The notes under the pieces were generated by a model. It worked only from the letters and a program-made list of their open reading frames with translations. It was not told the origin of the DNA and did no database searches. DNA of 60,094 nucleotides from the sequence record PZ445424.1. One strand, given 5' to 3'. A program made the translations under genes and the position numbers. This DNA is from a phage. This document shows positions 3,164 through 56,146 of the stretch, piece after piece (position 1 is the stretch's first letter; each line of letters begins with the position of its first letter).

Positions 3164-4036
3164 ATGAAAAAGAGTTCTGTAGCTATTAGTGTTGGTATGG
3201 CTTTAATTAATCCACGCGCTCGCGGTGAAGGTGATGTGGAACTGGAATACGAATATGCATCTGCGGAAGAGATCCCGGCAGAGTTTGCAACTCTTTACGC
3301 AGAGCAGGGCGGTAAATACGTTCTTGCAAAAGTTAAAGGTGTAGCCCCTGCTGATAGCGTTCGTCGTCTGGAAAGTGCGTTAGCTAAAGAACGTAACGAC
3401 CATCGTCAGGTGAAGCAACAGATTAGCGCACTTGGGCGTCCGGTTGAAGAAGTCCTTGCGGACCTTGATCGTATCCCTCAACTGGAAGCTGCCGCTAACG
3501 GTAAAGGTACTCCGGAAGACATCGAAAAGATGGTTAAAGCCCGTCTTGCTCCGCTCGAGCGTCAATTACAAACTGTAGCAGCTGAACGCGATTCCGTTAA
3601 GCAGGAAATTGAAGGCTACCGCACTCGCGAAACTAAAGCGAAAATTAAAGACGCAGTTATTGCTGCTGCATCCGGTGCTAAGCTGCGTCCGTCTGCTATC
3701 GAAGATGCGGTGACTTATGCACAGTTGCAAATGACCGTCGACGAGAACGGCAATGTGGTTACGAAAGATGGGGCTGGTGTAACTCCATACCTGACTCCGG
3801 CTGATTGGCTGAACGAAATCCTTCCGAAACGTCCGCACTGGGTTGAAGGATCTGCTGGTGGTGGTGCATCTGGTCCGGGCGCTGGCGGACATCACGGCGA
3901 AGACCCTTACAGTCACGACGGTTGGAACATCTCTAAACAGATGAATCTCTGGAAAACTAATCAATCTTTAGCTAAACGCTTAGCTGAAAAGAATGGCGTA
4001 GACCCGCTGAAGCCTGTACGTCCTGCTAAGAAATAA
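3164..4036 (+). CDS. Scaffolding protein (putative)
   Basis: 290 aa highly charged, predicted helical protein between portal and major capsid genes; GGAG RBS; no protease motif seen. Confidence 0.45.
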   Translation: MKKSSVAISVGMALINPRARGEGDVELEYEYASAEEIPAEFATLYAEQGGKYVLAKVKGVAPADSVRRLESALAKERNDHRQVKQQISALGRPVEEVLADLDRIPQLEAAANGKGTPEDIEKMVKARLAPLERQLQTVAAERDSVKQEIEGYRTRETKAKIKDAVIAAASGAKLRPSAIEDAVTYAQLQMTVDENGNVVTKDGAGVTPYLTPADWLNEILPKRPHWVEGSAGGGASGPGAGGHHGEDPYSHDGWNISKQMNLWKTNQSLAKRLAEKNGVDPLKPVRPAKK

Positions 4037-4050
4037 GTTGACATCCCGAC

Positions 4051-4083
4051 GTCCCTGATGTTAAGTTTCAACACATCAGGGAC
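4051..4083 (+). promoter_or_regulatory. Perfect 11-bp inverted repeat (GTCCCTGATGT / ACATCAGGGAC) in scaffold-capsid intergenic region; possible RNA processing or attenuation stem-loop
   Basis: Read directly from sequence; no downstream T-run, so not a classical intrinsic terminator. A TTGACA hexamer lies just upstream (~4038-4043). Confidence 0.35.
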
Positions 4084-4158
4084 ACGGGTTCCTAAACAGC
4101 CTTCCACGGGGAAAGGCTACCAACAGTAAACAAATCAATCCTTTTCCTGGAGACAAGT

Positions 4159-5220
4159 ATGTCTAAATCTAAAATTATTCTACCATTTGGTCGTGGTGAA
4201 ACTGACCTGACTCGTTTGAAGGATGTCATTGTCCCTGAGATCTTCACTGGTTATGTGCAGACGCAGACCGCTGAACTTTCTGCTCTGATTCAATCCGGTG
4301 CGGTTGTAATGGACGAGCGTTTATCTGCTAACCTTGCTGGTGCAGGTCTGACTTTTAACGAGCCGTTCTATAACGACCTGAAAGATGAAGACGAAGATAT
4401 CGCTGTTGATAAAGGCGATCCGTCCAAACCGTCTAACATCACTACCGGATCTGAAGTTCAGGTTCGTATGAGTCGTTCAAAATCCTGGGGTTCTGCGGAT
4501 CTGGTATCAGCTTTGATTGGTAACGACCCAATGACCGCTATCGGTAACCGCGTGTCTGCGTGGTGGGTCCGCCGTCTGCAAGCTGCATACATCGCAACCT
4601 GGAAAGGTGTATTTGCTAATGCGAAGAAATCTCATAACGACGATTTGACTTTCGACATCTCTGGTTCTTCTTTTGTAAATAACCAGACCAACTTTACCGC
4701 GTCTAACTTCATCAACGCAACTGCAACGATGGGTGATGCTGCCCGCGGTCTGACTATGATTATGGTACACTCTACCGTTCGTAACCGTATGCGTCAGTTG
4801 AACCTGATCGACTTCATTCCAGATGCTCGCGGTGAAACTCAGTTTGAGTATTATCAGGGTCTGCGTATTATTGAAGACGACTCCATGCCACACGATCCGT
4901 CTACTGGTGTGTTTGAAAGCTGGCTGTTCGGCCCGGGCGCAACTGCAATGGGTGCTGGATCACCGAAAGTTCCGACCGCTGTGGTGCGTGACGAAGCCGC
5001 TAACCAAGGCGCTGGTGAAGAAGTTCTTCACAACCGTGTTGAATGGATTCTGCATCCGGTTGGCCATGCTTGGGCTGCTGCTCAAACTGCTAAAGGTGGT
5101 CCGTCTAACGCTGCTACCACTAACAACCTGGCCCATGAAGATTCCTGGCGTCGTGCGTTCCCTGAGCGCAAGCAGCTTAAAGTTGCACGCCTGATCACTC
5201 GTGAGTATCAGGGTTCCTAA
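4159..5220 (+). CDS. Major capsid protein
   Basis: 353 aa ORF with GGAG RBS, positioned after portal/scaffold and followed by a strong intrinsic terminator, as expected for a highly expressed capsid gene. Confidence 0.7.
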   Translation: MSKSKIILPFGRGETDLTRLKDVIVPEIFTGYVQTQTAELSALIQSGAVVMDERLSANLAGAGLTFNEPFYNDLKDEDEDIAVDKGDPSKPSNITTGSEVQVRMSRSKSWGSADLVSALIGNDPMTAIGNRVSAWWVRRLQAAYIATWKGVFANAKKSHNDDLTFDISGSSFVNNQTNFTASNFINATATMGDAARGLTMIMVHSTVRNRMRQLNLIDFIPDARGETQFEYYQGLRIIEDDSMPHDPSTGVFESWLFGPGATAMGAGSPKVPTAVVRDEAANQGAGEEVLHNRVEWILHPVGHAWAAAQTAKGGPSNAATTNNLAHEDSWRRAFPERKQLKVARLITREYQGS

Positions 5221-5251
5221 GGCTTCACTCAACGCCGCGCTGTAGTATTTT

Positions 5252-5278
5252 GGGGACATCTTATGTCCCCTCTTTTTT
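5252..5278 (+). terminator. Rho-independent terminator after capsid gene
   Basis: GGGGACAT-CTT-ATGTCCCC stem-loop followed by TCTTTTTT. Confidence 0.7.
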
Positions 5279-5290
5279 AGGAGAACAACC

Positions 5291-5614
5291 ATGCGTTATC
5301 AACGTTATGAACGACATGACTTGATGGAAAAATCGTTGCAGGTGGAGCCAATTTCAATTACTCTCGATCCTGCTACGATTGACACCACAACTTCAGAAGT
5401 AAAAACGGTTACTGTTAAAATAAACTTTGTCCCAGGCGGAACTACAAACAAAGCGTATAGCGCGTCAGTTGACGGTTCCTCTGCTACAATTAAAGACAAC
5501 GGGGACGGTACAATTACTGTGACCACAACCGCAAGCAGTGGTACTTCAAACTTGACAGTAACGTCCAAGGCAAAGGATAGTGTTACTGGTACATGTGTTA
5601 TTAATGTGACCTAA
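5291..5614 (+). CDS. Ig-like (Big_2-type) domain protein, possible head decoration protein
   Basis: 107 aa, Thr/Ser/Val-rich beta-strand pattern (TVKINFVPGG...TITVTTTASSG...TCVINVT) typical of bacterial Ig-like domains; strong RBS AGGAGAA. Confidence 0.5.
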   Translation: MRYQRYERHDLMEKSLQVEPISITLDPATIDTTTSEVKTVTVKINFVPGGTTNKAYSASVDGSSATIKDNGDGTITVTTTASSGTSNLTVTSKAKDSVTGTCVINVT

Positions 5615-27539: not shown

Positions 27540-27766
27540 TAGCGATCCTCGATTGCTCTAATTGTGGTTAAATCTAATTCACAGGTTGGAGGGTATCCAT
27601 AAAGTCCCATTTGTTTTCCTTGTGCATTAAACCATGTGCCTGACGGATCCTGCCACTGCTTGGGTGTCTTGTGGAGAAATACTACTCTGTTTTCACCGTA
27701 ATAATTAATTCTTACGCCTGTGTGAGTATATTTACGTTTACCTTTTGGTCTTCTTAAGTTAGCCAT
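27539..27766 (-). CDS. Hypothetical protein
   Basis: 75 aa basic ORF immediately downstream of DpdA-like gene. Confidence 0.4.
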   Translation of the reverse strand: MANLRRPKGKRKYTHTGVRINYYGENRVVFLHKTPKQWQDPSGTWFNAQGKQMGLYGYPPTCELDLTTIRAIEDR

Positions 27767-28686
27767 CAGAACAACTCCATTACACGATCACGGAATGTGC
27801 CGTCATGGGTAGCGTTAATGTTTGCAGCAATTACACCATACGCCCATAAGTTGAAGGCAGCACGTGATTCATAGATTGTTGATAAACGTTCGTAAGTGAA
27901 ACCGTTTTGCTCAAGGTATTTAAGGACAGCGTCTTGTTCAATTTCAGTTAATGTTGAAACATGCTTACCAAAATGATGGCGGTCCGGTGACTTATCAGAT
28001 ACGCGCATTGGACCCCACGGAGGAGTAACCACACTTCCAAACGCAGCCGCTTGAATCCAGGAGGATGAGTCACAGCTATACCACGGATAACGCTCCATGA
28101 TGGTAGTGGACGTAATACCAAATGCATGAAGCTTAATCTTAGGGCGACCGCTACCATCGCAAATGTATTTGTCCCACATGCGGTCCAACCAAGTTTTAAG
28201 CGTGTCCGTGGAACGCCCTACCATGCCCCCAATCGTGATATATTCGTAGTTCTTCATGTAGTATTCAAGATAGCGGAAGTCCTCCCCAAAGTGAAAGCAC
28301 GGTAACGGTTTAGCACCGCGTGCTTCCATTTCAAGCTGGTTACGGTATGTTTGCAGCGGATCACCGATACCGTCGAGCACTGACGCCATTACAGCACCAT
28401 CTTCTACGCGAAGGATGTCTTTGTTGCGCTTGATGTATTCGCAGTATTCAACAATATCAATGTGAGCACCCAAAGAGTGCGCAGAGAATGCACCGGAGTC
28501 GAGAAACACTTTAGCCCCATCCGCACGCATTTGATCAACATACTTCTGACGTCCAACGTAGTGGTATGATTCCAAAATATGGGGCAGATTGCGCGTGATA
28601 TTTTTCTCATGCTCAGACAGCTTTTCATAACGCTGCTGTCCAGGCATATATCCGTTTGTGTAAACTGCTGCCATAAAAACGTTCAT
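27766..28686 (-). CDS. dpdA: DpdA-like DNA-guanine transglycosylase (TGT superfamily)
   Basis: 306 aa; VFLDSGAFS matches the catalytic-Asp DSGG(F)Q motif of tRNA-guanine transglycosylases; embedded among FolE/QueD/QueC/QueE genes; GGAG RBS. Confidence 0.65.
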   Translation of the reverse strand: MNVFMAAVYTNGYMPGQQRYEKLSEHEKNITRNLPHILESYHYVGRQKYVDQMRADGAKVFLDSGAFSAHSLGAHIDIVEYCEYIKRNKDILRVEDGAVMASVLDGIGDPLQTYRNQLEMEARGAKPLPCFHFGEDFRYLEYYMKNYEYITIGGMVGRSTDTLKTWLDRMWDKYICDGSGRPKIKLHAFGITSTTIMERYPWYSCDSSSWIQAAAFGSVVTPPWGPMRVSDKSPDRHHFGKHVSTLTEIEQDAVLKYLEQNGFTYERLSTIYESRAAFNLWAYGVIAANINATHDGTFRDRVMELF

Positions 28687-28689
28687 TTC

Positions 28690-28896
28690 TTACTCCACGT
28701 TGTTTAAAGCGACTACTTCAATGAGATAATTTTCTTTCTTAAAGCATTGCTCGCTTAAGATCTGTTCAACTCTAACATGCAGATCCGCATGAATTTGTTT
28801 TGCGTTACTGCTTTCAGCAATACCGTCCATACATAACAGAACTCTGAAAGTACCTTTTTCTACAGCTCGAACGTTGAAAAAGTATTGTCTTACCAT
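28690..28896 (-). CDS. Hypothetical protein
   Basis: Start refined to ATG at 28896 (GGAGGG RBS); 68 aa. Confidence 0.35.
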   Translation of the reverse strand: MVRQYFFNVRAVEKGTFRVLLCMDGIAESSNAKQIHADLHVRVEQILSEQCFKKENYLIEVVALNNVE

Positions 28897-28912
28897 ATTC
28901 CCTCCAATGACT

Positions 28913-28949
28913 AAAAAGCCCATACCAGTATTATGACCGATATGGGCTT
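28913..28949 (-). terminator. Putative intrinsic terminator inside the deazaguanine cluster (downstream of folE)
   Basis: On - strand: AAGCCCATA / TATGGGCTT 9-bp stem with 16-nt loop, followed by TTTTT. Confidence 0.4.
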
Positions 28950-28967
28950 GATCTGTAAAGCTATCTA

Positions 28968-29609
28968 TTATTTACAAGCTTCGAGGAACTCCCGGCGCCA
29001 TTCTTTACCAATATTGCTACCATGCTCCAGTTCTGTAGCGCCCCGGAATGCTTTGGTAATAGTAGAGCTGCCGCATACCTGCTTGACCCCGCGCGACTCC
29101 ATACACATATGCTTAGCATCGATGTAAACGCACACAGCTTTCGGGTCTAAATGCTCCTGGATGGCATCTGCAATCTGGTTAGTAAGACGTTCCTGAACTT
29201 GCAGTCGACGACTAAAAGCATCAACCACGCGAGACAGTTTACTGAGCCCCACAATGCGACCGTTAGGAACGTACCCCACAACAGCACGACCAATAATGGG
29301 AGCCATATGGTGCTCGCAATGACTGTAAACAGGAATATCCCGTACAATAACCATTTCATTAGTATTTTCCGCCCCATCCTCAAAGGTCTTAAACAGCCCA
29401 GCAATATCTGCATCGTAACCGCTAAACCATGTAGCATAAGCTTTAGCTACACGATCTGGAGTCTCTGCTAATCCTGGACGTAACTCAATGCAATCTTCAA
29501 TCTGAGTTAGTAAAGTATGCACCGCGCGAGCAATACGGAATTGAGTACCTTCGTTATCAATAGTAAATTTTGGCATGGTTTGCAGTTTCCTTGTTGTTAA
29601 TGTGGTCAT
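28968..29609 (-). CDS. folE: GTP cyclohydrolase I
   Basis: 213 aa; canonical motifs [10 protein letters not shown] and [10 protein letters not shown]...RLQVQERLT. Confidence 0.85.
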
Positions 29610-29610
29610 A

Positions 29611-30126
29611 TTACAGGCTATAGTTTACGTGACATTTCGAAGTTTCTTCGATGGTGCATTCTACAAGTTGAACACCATGTTCGTCAAGCAGTTGCGGCCC
29701 AATCACGTTAACCATATATGCAGCTAAGTTTTCCGCAGTTGGGTTGAACGGCAGTGATACCAATGAACCTAAATAATCCATTTGATCCCGATGCGACATA
29801 TTGTCCATAGTTGTCGTATCTACAAATTTATTTAAGCTCTCAATGAGTTGATCATGCTCCCAATGCAGGAACTTATGATCCCAGTTGTTTTCCAGCCACT
29901 GGCAAAGTGTAGTCTTAACCACACTAAAGTCGATAACTCGCCCAACATCGTCCAGTTGCTTAAGGGACGCAAAGTCAGCTTCGTGCATGACTGTATAAGG
30001 AACTTTTGGTGCAACCTTAAAATGAAACTTATAGTTGTGACCGTGAAGATGACGGCACTTGCTTTCATGACCTACAACACGATGTCCGGCGCAAATTTCA
30101 TGTGAACGAATTACTGTATAGCTCAT
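29611..30126 (-). CDS. queD: 6-carboxy-5,6,7,8-tetrahydropterin synthase
   Basis: 171 aa; zinc-binding motif CRHLHGHNY and N-terminal CAGHR typical of QueD/PTPS. Confidence 0.8.
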
Positions 30127-30713
30127 TTTAATACCTCTTTAGACTGTTCGATTTCTAACGCACGCTGTGCGGATGCAATAATATCTTTCAAGTCTTCTAC
30201 CAGACTTTTATGACCGCGTTCGCCAGGCTGCAACGCCTTTTTAATCAAATGTTGTAAAGCTGGGTTAGTTGTTTTCCAAGCTTCCAAGACATCATACACG
30301 TCCACGATGCATTTTACAACATTTCCGTTTTCATCTTTACCATAAATAATTTTCTGATATTTATTCATGGGAATTTTAGATGGTTCGTATTTCGTAAAAA
30401 CTGCACCATTAAATGTATTACTTATGCTTATTTCACTAGAAGGTTGATGATACACTCCGGAGCGAGTATTTTCCCGGGCTTGTTTGACGTAATCATCCGC
30501 AACGATATATCTCCAGGCTATAATATCTTGAATTTTATAAGGGCTATTCTCATCCATAGCTGAACGCCCTTCTATAGCCCAGTCCCATCCATGTAATAGA
30601 TTCTTAACGTGTGTGCCGTTTCGCAAACGAACTTCAAACTTTTCATTGCGAAGAAAGATTGGCATTCCTTTCCCATCGTGCTGGTGCCAAATTTTATTAA
30701 GATTATCTTTCAT
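30123..30713 (-). CDS. Hypothetical protein embedded in deazaguanine cluster
   Basis: About 196 aa (start taken at ATG 30713, weak RBS); no recognisable motif; flanked by queD and the transporter gene. Confidence 0.45.
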   Translation of the reverse strand: MKDNLNKIWHQHDGKGMPIFLRNEKFEVRLRNGTHVKNLLHGWDWAIEGRSAMDENSPYKIQDIIAWRYIVADDYVKQARENTRSGVYHQPSSEISISNTFNGAVFTKYEPSKIPMNKYQKIIYGKDENGNVVKCIVDVYDVLEAWKTTNPALQHLIKKALQPGERGHKSLVEDLKDIIASAQRALEIEQSKEVLK

Positions 30714-30715
30714 TT

Positions 30716-31195
30716 TTACGCTCTCGCTGTACGTGAATGAACTTCGTAAACAACCCAAAGGATGGCAGATGCTGTGAACTTACTTAAGCTCATTGCTACC
30801 ATCGATCCTGGATTAACAATACCTATAATACTTAAGAACACAATGGAGTCAATCGGTACAGCTACCAAAGAGCTAATAAATACACGTTGATGAAACGGCT
30901 TCTTAGTAATCGTGTATACCGCATAGTCCGCAAACTCGCTAAGAGCAAAGGATGCAACGGATGCAACTACAACAGCAGGATCCCCAAATACCCAGCTAAG
31001 GATGCAACCCACAATCATTGCAGGAATAACGCCTTTGCCAGCGTTACGCTGTGCGTAGTCACGCAACACAAAGATAATACCTACAAAGAAAGCCATCATC
31101 GGGACTACGCCAAGAGGCGTATTGAGCATTGGAAGGTAGGAAAAGCCCAGGTTTACGAATGTAATTGCAGCCAGATAAGCGACGATAAATTTCAT
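30716..31195 (-). CDS. Queuosine-precursor transporter, YhhQ/DUF165-like membrane protein
   Basis: Start refined to ATG 31195 (RBS GGAGAA). Multi-TM protein; FFVGIIFVLRDYAQRNAG and VPIDSIVFL resemble conserved YhhQ segments (FLATDLTVRIFG, NVSDTLAFF). Confidence 0.55.
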   Translation of the reverse strand: MKFIVAYLAAITFVNLGFSYLPMLNTPLGVVPMMAFFVGIIFVLRDYAQRNAGKGVIPAMIVGCILSWVFGDPAVVVASVASFALSEFADYAVYTITKKPFHQRVFISSLVAVPIDSIVFLSIIGIVNPGSMVAMSLSKFTASAILWVVYEVHSRTARA

Positions 31196-31315
31196 ACTTT
31201 TGTTCTCCAGTTTTAACAGCGTTATTCGCTGGTTGTTGGGTTTAAAAGCTTTAGTAGTATAGTTGGGTTCCCGCACCCTAAACAATGCGCTAGCGGTGCG
31301 GTTTTCTTGGTAAGA

Positions 31316-32023
31316 TCAAGCTTTGCTAATAAATTCGCTGTACCCTTTAGCACGCAGTTTGCACGCAGGACATTCACCGCAACCATAACCCCAGTCATGC
31401 AGAGTACGACGGACGCCGTTATAGCAAGTATGGGACTGTTCAATTACTGTGGTTAAGAAGCCAACCTTATCCGCCAGCTCAAACGTTTCTGCTTTATTTA
31501 AACGCATAAGCGGGGTAACGAAATGAATATCTGTTTCATATCCAACGTTTAACGTAGCTTCAAGCAAGTCTACAAACTGCTGGCGGCAATCCGGATAACC
31601 GCTATAGTCTGTTTCACAGACGCCTGTAACCACATATCGGGCACCAACTTTCTGCGCGTAGGCGTGCGCGGTAGTCAGGAAAAGAGCATTACGGTTTGGC
31701 ACAAAGCTTGCTGGAAGGTTGTTGTGCTGTTCGTGATGTTCGTTAACATCACCTTCGTTCCCAATTAAAGCGCTATTGCCAATCTGTTTCAAAGCAGGTA
31801 ATTCAAAGACAACAAATGGGACATCGTGCTCTTTACAAATTTGATTAGCACAAGCCAGCTCAATGTTATGACGTTGACCGTATGCAAAACCAATAGCGTA
31901 GACCTTATCATAGTTATTAAGGGCAAGACCCAAACAGGTCACGCTGTCCTGGCCGCCAGACAGGACGACAACGGCGGAGTTATGATTTTTTACAGGGAAT
32001 ACCAGTTTATCTAACTTATTCAT
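31316..32023 (-). CDS. queC: 7-cyano-7-deazaguanine synthase
   Basis: 235 aa; PP-loop VVLSGGQDSVTC; C-terminal zinc motif CGECPAC; not fused to an amidotransferase domain. Confidence 0.85.
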   Translation of the reverse strand: MNKLDKLVFPVKNHNSAVVVLSGGQDSVTCLGLALNNYDKVYAIGFAYGQRHNIELACANQICKEHDVPFVVFELPALKQIGNSALIGNEGDVNEHHEQHNNLPASFVPNRNALFLTTAHAYAQKVGARYVVTGVCETDYSGYPDCRQQFVDLLEATLNVGYETDIHFVTPLMRLNKAETFELADKVGFLTTVIEQSHTCYNGVRRTLHDWGYGCGECPACKLRAKGYSEFISKA

Positions 32024-32024
32024 T

Positions 32025-32213
32025 TTAGAAACCTTTAAGGCTAATATTAAGGTTAACGACTACTTGTTCAACTACATCTTCAGAGGTCATCTGACGCTTA
32101 TGAATTTCAAGCTCCGAGTATATTTTCTTGGATGCAGCACGACAAATAGCGTCATTTAACTCGTCCTGTAAACGTTGAATTTTCTGCATAAGAATTACAG
32201 TCTCTTCATTCAT
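32025..32213 (-). CDS. Hypothetical protein
   Basis: 62 aa ORF between queE and queC. Confidence 0.35.
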   Translation of the reverse strand: MNEETVILMQKIQRLQDELNDAICRAASKKIYSELEIHKRQMTSEDVVEQVVVNLNISLKGF

Positions 32214-32418
32214 CTTCTACACCTTTAATATGGCAAGGGTTGATTGTTACGTTTGACATCACAATTGGATGATTGCGTGCCCCGATTGTACTAACGTGAT
32301 TAATATCTAATTCAACATGCACACCCTGCATAGTAGCGTGAGCAATTGCAGAATTAAGTTTTTCTACCAGCTCAGTGATCATTTCCTGATGCTGTTTCGC
32401 TTCTTCCAAAGTGATCAT
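32206..32418 (-). CDS. Hypothetical protein
   Basis: 70 aa ORF. Confidence 0.35.
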   Translation of the reverse strand: MITLEEAKQHQEMITELVEKLNSAIAHATMQGVHVELDINHVSTIGARNHPIVMSNVTINPCHIKGVEDE

Positions 32419-32676
32419 TTAAACCTCCGTTAATGTTTGAGTCCAGTCTAAGCCTTCAAGGTCTACATCAGCTATTTCATCGTACTCGTAAGCTCCCGGA
32501 TCTGCTGGCAGCCATCTATCAAATCGATGGCTGAGTTCTGGAGGAATTGCTTCATACCCCCAAACCTTCCCATCCTTGTCGGCTGCTAGATAATCAACTC
32601 GACTTGGAACGGTTAAAGTGACACCACAAAAATTAACATCTTTAGTATGCACAACCTGACTTAACACACGCATCAT
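32419..32676 (-). CDS. Hypothetical protein (paralog of 54548-54847)
   Basis: 85 aa; shares DGKV...Y.A.P and VDLEG-DW--TL-E motifs with the + strand ORF at 54548. Confidence 0.4.
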   Translation of the reverse strand: MMRVLSQVVHTKDVNFCGVTLTVPSRVDYLAADKDGKVWGYEAIPPELSHRFDRWLPADPGAYEYDEIADVDLEGLDWTQTLTEV

Positions 32677-33380
32677 TCAACCCCAATATATTTGTGAACC
32701 TGAAGCTGCAAAGTGTACCCGTGTTTCATACAGCTTTGGACAACGGCTTGGATATTACTGTGGTTAAGGTCTTCATCCTGCTCGTCCATTGGCTGTAAAT
32801 ATATCTTACCCTTGAACCCCTTCGGAGGTCTAGCGATAAATGGCGTAGCTTGATGATCTAATGCTTGAAGAGGTAAACCGTCTTCCACGTTTACACAGCA
32901 CGCTTTAAGTACATATTTAAATGCATTAGCTCGGTACAGCACAGAAGGATGAATCTTTGAGGTTTTAGGACTACATACAATCACAGGCAACTGTGAAAAG
33001 TTCTTAGGTAAAGGCATAGACCCATTAGTTTCAATCTGCACCAAATAGCCGCGCGATAACAGTTGTTCAATAAACGGGTTAATTTGCTGACGGAACGGTT
33101 CACCCCCAGTGATAACCACAAGTGAGGTGGTATTACCAGATTCCAACTTGCGGCTTTCAATTAAACGCATAATATCGACAATGTGATAAAGACTACGACC
33201 AACAGTATAATCTGTATCACAGCCCGGACATTGCAGGTTACACCCAGCAAGTCGCACAAATACAGCAGGTTGGCCGCAGAACGGACCTTCACCCTGAATG
33301 GTAGAGAATACCGAATGCACGTCTAAATACATATCGTTTTCTTTAGAACGAGACTCGGGAGCTTGTTGATTAATATTCAT
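32673..33380 (-). CDS. queE: 7-carboxy-7-deazaguanine synthase (radical SAM)
   Basis: 235 aa; CNLQCPGC (Cx3Cx2C) cluster motif and VVITGGEP SAM-binding motif; RBS AGAGGA. Confidence 0.8.
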   Translation of the reverse strand: MNINQQAPESRSKENDMYLDVHSVFSTIQGEGPFCGQPAVFVRLAGCNLQCPGCDTDYTVGRSLYHIVDIMRLIESRKLESGNTTSLVVITGGEPFRQQINPFIEQLLSRGYLVQIETNGSMPLPKNFSQLPVIVCSPKTSKIHPSVLYRANAFKYVLKACCVNVEDGLPLQALDHQATPFIARPPKGFKGKIYLQPMDEQDEDLNHSNIQAVVQSCMKHGYTLQLQVHKYIGVE

Positions 33381-33449
33381 CTTAAATCCTCTAGTGAAAA
33401 AGAAAGCGCCTCATTGGGCGCCTTCATTATAACGTGATATGTTTTGATA

Positions 33450-34250
33450 TTACAAGCCGTTCAAGGCTTCCGGTACTGGTACAGGTACGCGACCAGTCAC
33501 ACCATTAAATTTCTTCCAGCGTGCATACTGGGTTTTAACGGTATCTTCGTTCAGACCATGTCGACCAGCCAGGTTCAGAACATAAGAGATCGGAGCAGGC
33601 TGACCCAGCGTAGCGCTAATCTGGTCCATCAGAGCCCAAGCACGACCGCAGGAAGTTTCCGGTTGCGGACGACGAACACCGTTCTGTTCCGGCATACGAT
33701 TAGCTTCTTTTTCTTTCTCGCGGAGCTCTTTAGCGCGCGCTTTTTCCGCTTCTTTTTCTGCCTGTTTTGCAGCACGGATCTTGTCTTTGAAGCCTTTAAT
33801 AGTAGCTTCCAGACCATCCACCAGACCCTGAGCAGAAGTTACAGCACCAGACAGGTCTTCACCTTTAGACTTCTTAACGACAGCTTTCAGCTCTTTCAGA
33901 GCTTCTTTAATGGTCTTCAGGTTTGCAGATCCCTGAGTTTCTGCTTCCGTGATCTGTTCAACAGTGCTTTCGTCGGTGACGGTAGCCAAAGAGTTTTTCA
34001 GAATATCAGCAGCGTTAGCAATCGCATTAAATTTGTTTTCCGCTTCAATGCGGATTTCAGCTTGTTTCTTTTCAGCGGCAGCTTTTTTCTCTGCTTCTTT
34101 TTTCTCTTTTGCTACGCGTGCAGCTTCAGCAGCAGCGGCTTTCTTAGCTTCTGCGTCATTCACAGTAGCTTCTTTCTTTGCAGGTTTAGCAGATTTTGCA
34201 GCGGCAGCGGCGGCTGCGGCAGCAGCTTTTTTGTCTTCAATGTTGCTCAT
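33450..34250 (-). CDS. Ala/Lys/Glu-rich low-complexity protein with structured C-terminal domain
   Basis: Start refined to ATG 34250 (GGAGTG RBS). Poly-Ala run and KAAAEKK repeats encoded by GCN-rich DNA; the overlapping + strand ORF is an antisense shadow. Confidence 0.5.
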   Translation of the reverse strand: MSNIEDKKAAAAAAAAAAKSAKPAKKEATVNDAEAKKAAAAEAARVAKEKKEAEKKAAAEKKQAEIRIEAENKFNAIANAADILKNSLATVTDESTVEQITEAETQGSANLKTIKEALKELKAVVKKSKGEDLSGAVTSAQGLVDGLEATIKGFKDKIRAAKQAEKEAEKARAKELREKEKEANRMPEQNGVRRPQPETSCGRAWALMDQISATLGQPAPISYVLNLAGRHGLNEDTVKTQYARWKKFNGVTGRVPVPVPEALNGL

Positions 34251-34377
34251 TCTCTTCACTCCGAATTGTTATGGGTTCGTTTGTTACCAACGGGGTTAAA
34301 TGTACCAAAGGATTTTGTGACACGCAACCCCTTATCTGAACATTTTTAAAAATATTTTTGATCAAGCTTAGAACTTA

Positions 34378-53318: not shown

Positions 53319-53419
53319 GCCGTGCAACCCGACCCATCCTTTTCCAGGTACTTGGAGTGCTGGGGAGTGCCCTGTCCATCCTGATAGTAAGTCCTTGTCT
53401 AAATCTCACCTGTCACATA

Positions 53420-53432
53420 CCCCCCCCCCCCC
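53420..53432. repeat. Homopolymeric poly(C) tract, 13 nt
   Basis: 13 consecutive C in intergenic DNA about 100 nt upstream of the HNH endonuclease gene. Confidence 0.6.
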
Positions 53433-54547: not shown

Positions 54548-54847
54548 ATGCTGTATTTAGGAATGGACGAAACTGGACACGCAATTCCTTCTGTTAACAA
54601 AGAGACGCAAGTATTTACAGACTATTACGGGTCTGCTATCCCTGTAGAGCCCTGGGCTAACTTTATCGCTGTAGACGCAGACGGTAAAGTACATTGTTAT
54701 GACGCCAAACCTTCTTGCTATGAATCTGGTAAGCAATGGATGCTTGGCGTATACGGATCACATGTCCGCTACTGCGGTGAAGTTGACCTTGAAGGTATGG
54801 ACTGGCGCGATACGTTGAAGGAGATTACTACATATGTCCGCAGCTGA
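54548..54847 (+). CDS. Hypothetical protein (paralog of 32419-32676)
   Basis: 99 aa; shares C-terminal VDLEGMDWRDTLKE motif with the - strand ORF; RBS GGAGG. Confidence 0.45.
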   Translation: MLYLGMDETGHAIPSVNKETQVFTDYYGSAIPVEPWANFIAVDADGKVHCYDAKPSCYESGKQWMLGVYGSHVRYCGEVDLEGMDWRDTLKEITTYVRS

Positions 54848-55753: not shown

Positions 55754-56146
55754 ATGCTATTAGTCGTCACCGGAGGTCGAGATTTTAAGCATGTGGAGTA
55801 TATTTACGCTCAATTGGATAAGCTGCATATGCAAAGAAGGATAACCACACTTCGCCACGGTGACGCTGACGGTGTTGACCGGATTTGCGCACATTGGGCG
55901 GAGCGGAACGGTATTAAGACGGAGGCGTTTCCTGCGCCGTGGGACAATCTTTCGCTTCCAAATACTAAGATACGGTATAACGCCAGAGGTGCTTATAATG
56001 CACAAGCGGGCGCTTACCGTAATCAATTAATGCTGGATACTGATCCTAAACCAGATCACGCTATTGTGTTTCCGGGCGGGGCTGGTACTATGGACATGTA
56101 CAGACGGATTAAAGCATCCGGTATTCCTTACACATTAGCGGAGTAA
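55754..56146 (+). CDS. SLOG/DUF2493-like Rossmann-fold protein (putative)
   Basis: 130 aa; LLVVTGGRDF...HGDADGVDR...IVFPGGAGT pattern resembles the SLOG/LOG-like fold. Confidence 0.4.
   Translation: MLLVVTGGRDFKHVEYIYAQLDKLHMQRRITTLRHGDADGVDRICAHWAERNGIKTEAFPAPWDNLSLPNTKIRYNARGAYNAQAGAYRNQLMLDTDPKPDHAIVFPGGAGTMDMYRRIKASGIPYTLAE

Follow-up and report, generated by a model that had tools for sequence, protein, structure and literature searches.

A variable 196-residue protein encoded in the dPreQ0 cluster of a Seuratvirus is probably an accessory early protein

The phage sequence PZ445424.1, a stretch of 60,094 nucleotides whose full length is called the window here, contains a cluster of genes for making 7-cyano-7-deazaguanine (preQ0) and placing it in DNA and, inside this cluster, a gene for a protein of 196 amino acids (aa), bas23_0041. 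FolE, QueD, QueE, a stand-alone QueC, and DpdA are all encoded on one strand within positions 27766-33380 (Table 1), which is the gene set of the CAjan type. The segment from 27700 to 33400 is 100% identical to Escherichia phage WildeMaa (Bas23, MZ501112.1; Queuovirinae, Seuratvirus), a member of the BASEL collection. An original prediction, made from the sequence alone, held that the base inserted by this system is preQ0 and that the 196-aa protein is a candidate modifier of it. Our analysis favors a different role for the protein: the cluster is the known Seuratvirus system that yields DNA with preQ0 (dPreQ0), and the 196-aa gene, inserted in a variable spot, encodes an accessory early protein whose C-terminal module may be a distant relative of DUF3310. 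We put the probability of this reading at roughly 0.7.

The window is a complete 60-kb genome, a circular permutation of MZ501112.1 in which window base 1 corresponds to record base 536. Thus, a gene found nowhere in the window is found nowhere in the phage genome. The sole length difference found between the two sequences is an insertion of four bases in the window (CACATAC... versus CAC...) at ~53416, directly before a run of 13 C in the intergenic region ~53416-53432.

Members of the QueC family have a PP-loop ATP-binding motif, SGGxDS, and a C-terminal cluster of zinc-binding Cys residues. The QueC translation of the window contains VVLSGGQDSVT near its N-terminus and C-x8-C-x2-C-x2-C (CYNG...GCGECPAC) near its C-terminus. 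It matches PF06508 over residues 17 to 230 (251.2 bits, cut-off 22; E=9e-75) and TIGR00364 with 243 bits (cut-off 150.3). This end-to-end match leaves no space for a second domain, in agreement with the earlier description of QueC as a stand-alone protein of 235 aa. The companion claim, that the window lacks a glutamine amidotransferase (Gat), the nitrile reductase QueF, and ArcS, was borne out by a Pfam scan of every open reading frame (ORF) of at least 90 aa and, for Gat and QueF, by tblastn as well. The Pfam matches included no GATase, QueF, or ArcS family and, besides DpdA, no ArcS-type or TGT/PUA-type protein; the families matched across the genome belong to replication, recombination, structure, and lysis, and none points to a tailoring enzyme. 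The sole signal of the QueF family, PF14489, lies within FolE at 24.9 bits, below the cut-off of 27.3, and is attributed to the fold that the QueF and FolE families share. In tblastn searches, the Gat-QueC proteins of Nonagvirus JenP2 and Nipunavirus PAJD-1 match the window via their QueC halves only (residues ~240-457, window 31337-32002). Their Gat halves (residues 1-240) and the QueF-like protein of Sphingomonas phage MMDA13 returned noise only, with E-values of at least 0.18.

Phages of the genus Nonagvirus, such as 9g and JenP2, belong to the same subfamily and share the core order QueE-QueC-QueD-FolE-DpdA, and DpdA of Nonagvirus ChristophMerian is ~69% identical to that of the window. 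However, a class-II glutamine amidotransferase domain, missing here, is fused to their QueC, and their product is dG+. The window QueC is ~28-29% identical to the QueC half of the Nonagvirus and Nipunavirus fusions (~29% for Nonagvirus) and 40% identical to QueC of MMDA13, whereas DpdA is ~68-72% identical across Seuratvirus and these comparison genera. This disparity suggests that QueC may have been exchanged, rather than Gat having simply been lost.

The prediction of preQ0 as the inserted base is supported by the sequence, by the GenBank record MZ501112.1, which labels the QueC gene 'dPreQ0 synthase QueC', and by the chemistry of CAjan; as far as sequence can tell it is correct, and it has already been published. 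In the published pathway, FolE, QueD, QueE, and stand-alone QueC would convert GTP to preQ0, and DpdA would then replace guanines of the phage DNA with preQ0, giving dPreQ0. The rule that QueC leads to dPreQ0 and Gat-QueC to dG+ (Hutinet 2019; Maffei 2021) has been stated for the two genera, with Seuratvirus making dPreQ0 and Nonagvirus making dG+ through the fusion (Maffei 2021). Thus, the step from a stand-alone QueC to dPreQ0 repeats this rule and the GenBank annotation. In CAjan DNA, dPreQ0 amounts to 70,628 per 10^6 nucleotides, while dADG, dG+, dPreQ1, and dQ are each below 6, and inactivation of dpdA abolishes all modification (Hutinet 2019). CAjan (Hutinet 2019; Kot 2020) belongs to the same genus, has the gene order seen here, and likewise has a stand-alone QueC and no amidotransferase. 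Its DpdA, QueE, YhhQ, and QueC are 99.7%, 99.1%, 98.7%, and 97.4% identical, respectively, to those of the window. By orthology to CAjan at 97-99.7% identity, the DNA of the present phage is predicted to carry dPreQ0 and nothing further.

Table 1. Genes and protein regions of the deazaguanine cluster, with their positions in the window
Feature	Positions	Strand	Size and basis
DpdA, DNA guanine transglycosylase inserting preQ0	27766..28686	-	306 aa; phrog_887 'queuine tRNA-ribosyltransferase', E=2e-96; DpdA in MZ501112
77-aa hypothetical protein, bas23_0038	28690..28923	-	ORF; no family match
FolE, GTP cyclohydrolase I	28968..29609	-	213 aa; PF01227, E=1.8e-63
QueD, 6-carboxytetrahydropterin synthase	29611..30126	-	171 aa; PF01242, E=6.9e-21
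196-aa gene, bas23_0041 (stop codon included)	30123..30713	-	phrog_23361 over full length, E=9e-101
N-terminal domain of the 196-aa protein, residues 1-75	30489..30713	-	small beta domain; variable, lineage-specific
Linker of the 196-aa protein, residues 76-115	30369..30488	-	predicted disordered; hypervariable in length and sequence
C-terminal conserved module of the 196-aa protein, residues 116-196	30126..30368	-	beta-hairpin and three helices (predicted)
YhhQ-like putative preQ0 transporter	30716..31195	-	159 aa; Vut_1 and TIGR00697 matches below cut-off
QueC, 7-cyano-7-deazaguanine synthase, stand-alone	31316..32023	-	235 aa; PF06508, TIGR00364
Three small hypothetical genes (62, 70, and 85 aa) between QueC and QueE	32025..32676	-	PHROG matches only
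QueE, 7-carboxy-7-deazaguanine synthase	32673..33380	-	235 aa; Radical_SAM and Fer4_12; QueE in MZ501112

Judged by its layout and its codons, the 196-aa gene is genuine, expressed-looking, and under selection. It starts two bases past the stop of yhhQ, and at its other end the stop codon TGA shares bases with the queD ATG (ATGA); an overlap of this kind and a 2-nucleotide gap are typical of co-translated operon genes. This operon-like spacing, together with synonymous changes in the codons of the conserved C-terminal module (discussed below), argues that the gene is real. An ORF of 211 aa that begins with TTG (30123-30758) was rejected as the true gene, since the protein starts with MKDNL in all of the homologues listed, which places the start at the ATG at 30713. 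The earlier statement that the 196-aa product has no recognizable motif was confirmed, as the protein matches nothing in Pfam (E<=10), NCBIfam, or the PDB sequences (phmmer and profile).

An AlphaFold2 model based on 90 homologues divides the protein into a beta domain (residues 1 to 75), a disordered linker (residues 78 to 114), and the C-terminal module, here called the C-module. The N-terminal domain contains strands at residues 26-30, 35-37, and 64-69 with predicted local distance difference test (pLDDT) values of 53-80, and the pLDDT of the linker is below 50. Modeled alone, the C-module forms a beta-hairpin followed by three helices with a pLDDT of 88.6 and a predicted TM score (pTM) of 0.70. 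In 90 sequences, 14 positions of the C-module, which are described as polar or aromatic, are invariant: Y119, D138, Y140, D141, H155, K158, K159, G164, R166, H168, K169, D174, S181, and R184.

The three parts have diverged to very different degrees. CAjan gp40 is the orthologue of the 196-aa protein and occupies the same slot. Between the two proteins, 52 of the 54 residues from 137 to 190 are identical, with 22 of those codons synonymously different; in the N-terminal domain identity extends to 37 of 65 aligned residues, and in the linker to 7 of 39. Orthologues range from 167 to 201 aa in length. A profile search with the N-terminal domain found one Seuratvirus fragment and nothing beyond Seuratvirus, and the domain is weakly similar to the N-terminus of a metagenomic homologue, P0076. 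Together, these comparisons indicate that the 80-residue C-module is likely to be under very strong purifying selection and that the N-terminal domain and linker are fast-evolving. Within the cluster, identity to CAjan falls to 89% for FolE, 72% for QueD, and 55% for the 196-aa protein. The 196-aa gene is thus the most variable of the cluster, unlike what is seen for the pathway enzymes. More broadly, the region 29611-30713, when set against CAjan 30670-32082, is a local hot spot of variability in an otherwise near-identical cluster; CAjan has an extra gene of 107 aa, gp39, between gp40 and queD, which is missing here.

The proposal that this ORF encodes a modifier implies an undescribed tailoring or accessory enzyme, one that would further modify preQ0 or dPreQ0 or would help DpdA with insertion. 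The setting of the gene, embedded in the cluster with its stop overlapping the queD start, agrees with such a role, as does the occurrence of a protein with the same C-module inside the Nonagvirus cluster. In addition, the literature gives no function for the gene, which lies outside the published CAjan deletions; these are limited to folE, queC, dpdA, and yhhQ, and the yhhQ deletion left modification unchanged. Helpers are also conceivable given that DpdA of phage 9g, acting alone in E. coli, puts preQ0 into plasmid DNA with replacement of ~0.3% of G (Hutinet 2019). However, when 9g DpdA is combined with Gat-QueC in E. coli, 9-18% of G is replaced without other phage genes (Hutinet 2019). CAjan, which has the orthologue, contains dPreQ0, and the four other derivatives assayed were undetected in its DNA. 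Furthermore, the 196-aa protein matches no known enzyme family, and change in its N-terminal domain and linker has been much more rapid than in the enzymes of the pathway. The bacterial Dpd system, in which the DpdA transglycosylase is described as putting preQ0 into DNA (PMC10164549), shares the use of DpdA; however, no DpdB- or DpdC-type family is present among the window ORFs covered by the Pfam scan, and the 196-aa protein resembles neither DpdB nor DpdC in any search run here. Phage 9g DpdA acts without DpdB in E. coli. Tailoring enzymes already described for 7-deazaguanine are DpdL, DpdM, and DpdN in phages and DpdC in bacteria.

The distribution of the C-module also bears on this question. 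Full-length relatives of the 196-aa protein come from ~60-kb Seuratvirus-type contigs and short fragments. When the protein was compared with 1.84 billion cluster representatives (50% identity), 1 match was obtained at E<=1e-30 and 2177 at E<=1e-3, and among the other matches listed, all but one N-terminal fragment align through the C-module. The module occurs alone (75-110 aa) or at the N- or C-terminal end of proteins of up to 446 aa; these partners contain hardly any Pfam domains, with one RNHCP and one SH3_15 identified in a Pfam scan of 89 longer module proteins and one BRCT in a subsequent scan. In the phage genome collection, the C-module is present in 717 records (367 from Salmonella phages and 192 from Escherichia phages), with Jerseyvirus, Kagunavirus, and Drexlerviridae among those listed, and DpdA is present in 237, of which 3 are from Salmonella phages. 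These counts indicate that most module carriers have no deazaguanine system. In Shigella phage Sf12, SETP13, and Escherichia phage 26, the C-module is a stand-alone protein of 76-82 aa with no que genes within the ~5-6 kb fetched around it, and the neighborhood of P0076 consists of a single-stranded DNA-binding protein, a lysozyme, and small unknown genes, with que genes absent. Conversely, the C-module is absent within 8 kb on either side of DpdA in Nipunavirus PAJD-1, Sphingomonas phage MMDA13, and Vibrio phage AQKL99, three clusters with the gene order helicase...QueE-QueC-QueD-FolE-DpdA-clamp-polymerase. Pseudomonas phage Itty13, considered as a module-carrying deazaguanine phage, was rejected: it is temperate and has no que genes annotated in the ~32 kb examined. 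Hypothetical genes between core genes have been described for some phages (iggy paper), and the literature leaves 6 of the 12 CAjan cluster genes unassigned.

Thus, the orthologue in CAjan without a further derivative, the distribution of the module, and the action of 9g DpdA alone leave the candidate-modifier idea unsupported, and we judge a tailoring or accessory role in the pathway to be very unlikely. Under the preferred reading, the 196-aa product would be a two-domain accessory early protein that is neither a core nor a tailoring part of the preQ0 pathway, and the position of its gene would be explained by insertion at a variable site within the replication module and not by a part in preQ0 synthesis or alteration.

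The family and structure searches that the original prediction had proposed for this gene gave a weak fold resemblance to DUF3310-type entries, and no enzyme family. T7 gp1.7 contains DUF3310 (PF11753) at residues 122-184 with 81.5 bits. The likeness of the C-module motifs to those of DUF3310 was at the outset an assumption, which was then tested. Like the C-module, the DUF3310 of T7 gp1.7 is small and lies at the C-terminal end of an early protein; DUF3310 has likewise been shuffled onto varied N-termini, and motifs of the two can be aligned collinearly: [K/H]Y, an acidic-hydrophobic strand, x-x-hKK/KY-x-L, G-x-K, and DL. That gp1.7 and the window protein are both 196 aa long is a coincidence. 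The C-module differs from DUF3310 in belonging to separate PHROG families, in its invariant residues, and in its lack of a PF11753 match.

With the domain-only model as query, a Foldseek search of BFVD returned family members first (TMq 0.55-0.80), followed by entries named 'Nucelotide kinase' and 'SaV-like' with a probability of 0.99; the latter is the label of one entry and refers to the SaV protein of a lactococcal phage. The clean matches to these entries cover 56-57 columns with a root-mean-square deviation of 2.2-2.3 A and a TMq of 0.53. The full-length model found nothing in the PDB below E=0.28, and no solved structure for the module family or for DUF3310 is detectable by sequence. BLASTP of the 196-aa protein against T7 gp1.7 gave noise only, and a first hhalign comparison with an alignment of T7-like gp1.7 gave a probability of 1% through a spurious segment. 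The hhalign comparison was repeated with a diverse module alignment and a DUF3310 alignment composed of T7-like proteins and eight distant phages. In two runs, P was 0.01-0.03 with shallow profiles on both sides (Neff about 2.7-3), and the alignment was collinear: nKY/sHY, VDVYDVL/IEaIEVI, QHlIKKaL/GNiLKYrLR, GHK/gKK, and DL/DL. The JenP2 module matches the DUF3310-type phrog_25460 with E=0.032. In addition, a match to the N-terminus of phrog_23238 was obtained with the N-terminal domain of gp14 of the Acinetobacter phage C62, a module carrier; DUF3310 proteins match the C-terminal region of that same PHROG. We consider it somewhat more likely than not that the C-module and DUF3310 share a superfamily; a kinase activity of the 196-aa protein is rated much lower.

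Three Obolenskvirus phages of Acinetobacter, C62, LZ35, and AP22, encode proteins with this N-terminal domain in the same genomic slot. In C62 gp14 and LZ35 YD_62 the domain is followed by the C-module, and AP22 ORF87 has DUF6378 (PF19905, E=7.5e-8) in its place. It appears that small helical modules at the C-terminal end are exchanged while the N-terminal part is kept.

If the likeness to DUF3310 extended to function, the 196-aa protein could be a gp1.7-like nucleotide kinase tied to the pathway, phosphorylating (d)GMP or other nucleoside monophosphates to supply GTP for FolE or deoxynucleoside triphosphates for replication. T7 gp1.7, the only one of these proteins known to have such an activity, is reported to phosphorylate dTMP and dGMP to the diphosphates (work attributed to Tran 2012). 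DUF3310, which the module weakly resembles in fold and motifs, is the only conserved domain of gp1.7; many of the invariant residues of the module are basic or acidic, and the gene lies among those of a GTP-consuming pathway. However, the homology to DUF3310 is not statistically established, and the conserved residues depart from the DUF3310 consensus (K-K for K-Y, H for N). Moreover, most module carriers have no que genes. A kinase of this kind is unlikely in our estimate. A bolder form of the idea, that the C-module is an undescribed, strongly conserved branch of gp1.7/DUF3310 that was recruited into the deazaguanine operon of enterobacterial Queuovirinae for nucleotide handling, would be a long shot. 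If it were true, the protein might phosphorylate GMP or dGMP for FolE or use as substrates the deazaguanine nucleotides that DNA turnover sets free, and a knockout would lower or alter dPreQ0 or dG+.

Alternatively, the protein may interact with the host, in anti-defense, in take-over, or as a frequent trigger of defense, with the C-module binding a conserved host target and the N-terminal part shaped by an arms race. This idea draws on the low identity to CAjan gp40 amid a cluster at 97-99.7%, on the extra gp39 adjoining it in CAjan, and on the spread of orthologue lengths. It would also fit the shuffling of the module onto many unrelated partners and its occurrence alone among small early genes, as well as the fact that DUF3310 proteins can be toxic or sensed: the mycobacteriophage protein Waterfoul gp47 is cytotoxic, and T7 gp1.7 activates Avs5. 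On the other hand, no known anti-defense family was matched, and the extreme conservation of polar residues fits an enzyme equally well. We regard a host-interaction protein as possible but rather improbable.

The invariant Lys, Arg, and His residues of the helical C-module would also suit a small protein that binds DNA or has a regulatory function in the replication module. In several phages the neighbors of the gene are replication or recombination genes, one family member contains a BRCT domain, and others contain zinc-ribbon-like Cys motifs (P0091 and P0093; RNHCP). However, the module is nearly charge-neutral, with 13 K+R versus 12 D+E; it matches no helix-turn-helix or other DNA-binding family, and Foldseek found no match in the PDB. 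A DNA-binding role seems highly improbable.

Several points weigh against the reading of the 196-aa product as a DUF3310-related accessory protein in an otherwise known dPreQ0 cluster. PF11753 at E<=10 matches neither the 196-aa protein nor seven database homologues nor six divergent phage members. The Foldseek E-values for the DUF3310-type entries are 0.05-0.2, and the probability in the repeated hhalign comparison is 1.6-4%. Nonagvirus JenP2 carries a C-module protein inside its cluster, between QueE and Gat-QueC, and this association in both genera could stem from a functional connection instead of common descent; the JenP2 protein is 252 aa long, and its N-terminus is unrelated to that of the 196-aa protein. 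As for the modification itself, dPreQ0 was measured for CAjan and is predicted by orthology for the present phage, and the mass spectrometry of CAjan DNA, being targeted, would have overlooked any unknown derivative present in minor amounts. With these points taken into account, we still favor a C-module that is a distant relative of DUF3310 (SaV-like). It would probably bind a putative phosphate-bearing ligand, such as a nucleotide or nucleic acid, or a conserved host partner by way of its invariant His, Lys, Arg, and Asp residues, and the variable N-terminal part would adapt the protein to the lineage.

Other genes of the cluster call for brief comment. DpdA has no Pfam match, and it scores 17 bits against the NCBIfam DpdA model, whose cut-off is 200. 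The YhhQ-like protein falls below both curated cut-offs (Vut_1, 25.5 versus 27.2 bits; TIGR00697, 21.7 versus 50.95 bits). Of the small proteins encoded between QueC and QueE, those of 62 and 70 aa correspond to CAjan gp43 and gp44 at 92% and 97% identity, respectively, and the annotated CAjan cluster has no counterpart of the 85-aa gene. CAjan gp36, in the slot of the 77-aa protein, has no BLASTP match to it. The 70-aa ORF (32206-32418, minus strand) matches phrog_26258, 'radical SAM domain-containing protein', a name that CAjan gp44 also bears; it is far too small for a radical SAM enzyme, and the name was probably carried over from the adjacent QueE. The 85-aa ORF (32419-32676, minus strand) matches phrog_1972, of unknown function, and has a paralogue at 54620-54826 on the plus strand (32% identity, E=2e-7). 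A 269-aa protein (33450-34259, minus strand; phrog_11298, function unknown) has a long, low-complexity N-terminal half rich in Ala, Lys, and Glu; CAjan gp46 at the matching position is annotated 'transcriptional activator FtrA domain-containing protein'. Elsewhere, at 55754-56146 on the plus strand, a 130-aa protein that GenBank labels hypothetical contains a YAcAr (YspA/cpYpsA-related SLOG) domain (E=5e-18).

Public names given to C-module proteins are in several cases unsupported. They include 'ATPase' for Shigella phage Sf12 gp71 and for phrog_17613, 'Terminase large subunit' for a 133-aa protein of Pectobacterium phage MA13, and 'Phosphodiesterase' for a protein of Alteromonas phage R7M; the BFVD entries A0A5Q2F242 and A0A6M3YTD0 are among the records concerned. 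In Aeromonas phage vB_AhyS-A18P4, the C-module lies toward the N-terminus of gp37 (468 aa; positions 3923-5329 of the locus L026), and a BRCT domain (PF00533, E=2.4e-4) lies in its C-terminal part. BRCT is its sole Pfam match and may be the source of its UniProt name, 'DNA ligase'.

For the biology of these phages, the 196-aa gene is unlikely to encode a hidden tailoring enzyme and so has no priority in the search for new deazaguanine chemistry. The only novelty lies in having delineated a large family of phage domains for which Pfam offers no model. Defining this module family, together with biochemistry on one of its members, would annotate hundreds of phage genes whose present label is 'hypothetical' or, in error, 'ATPase', 'terminase', or 'DNA ligase'.

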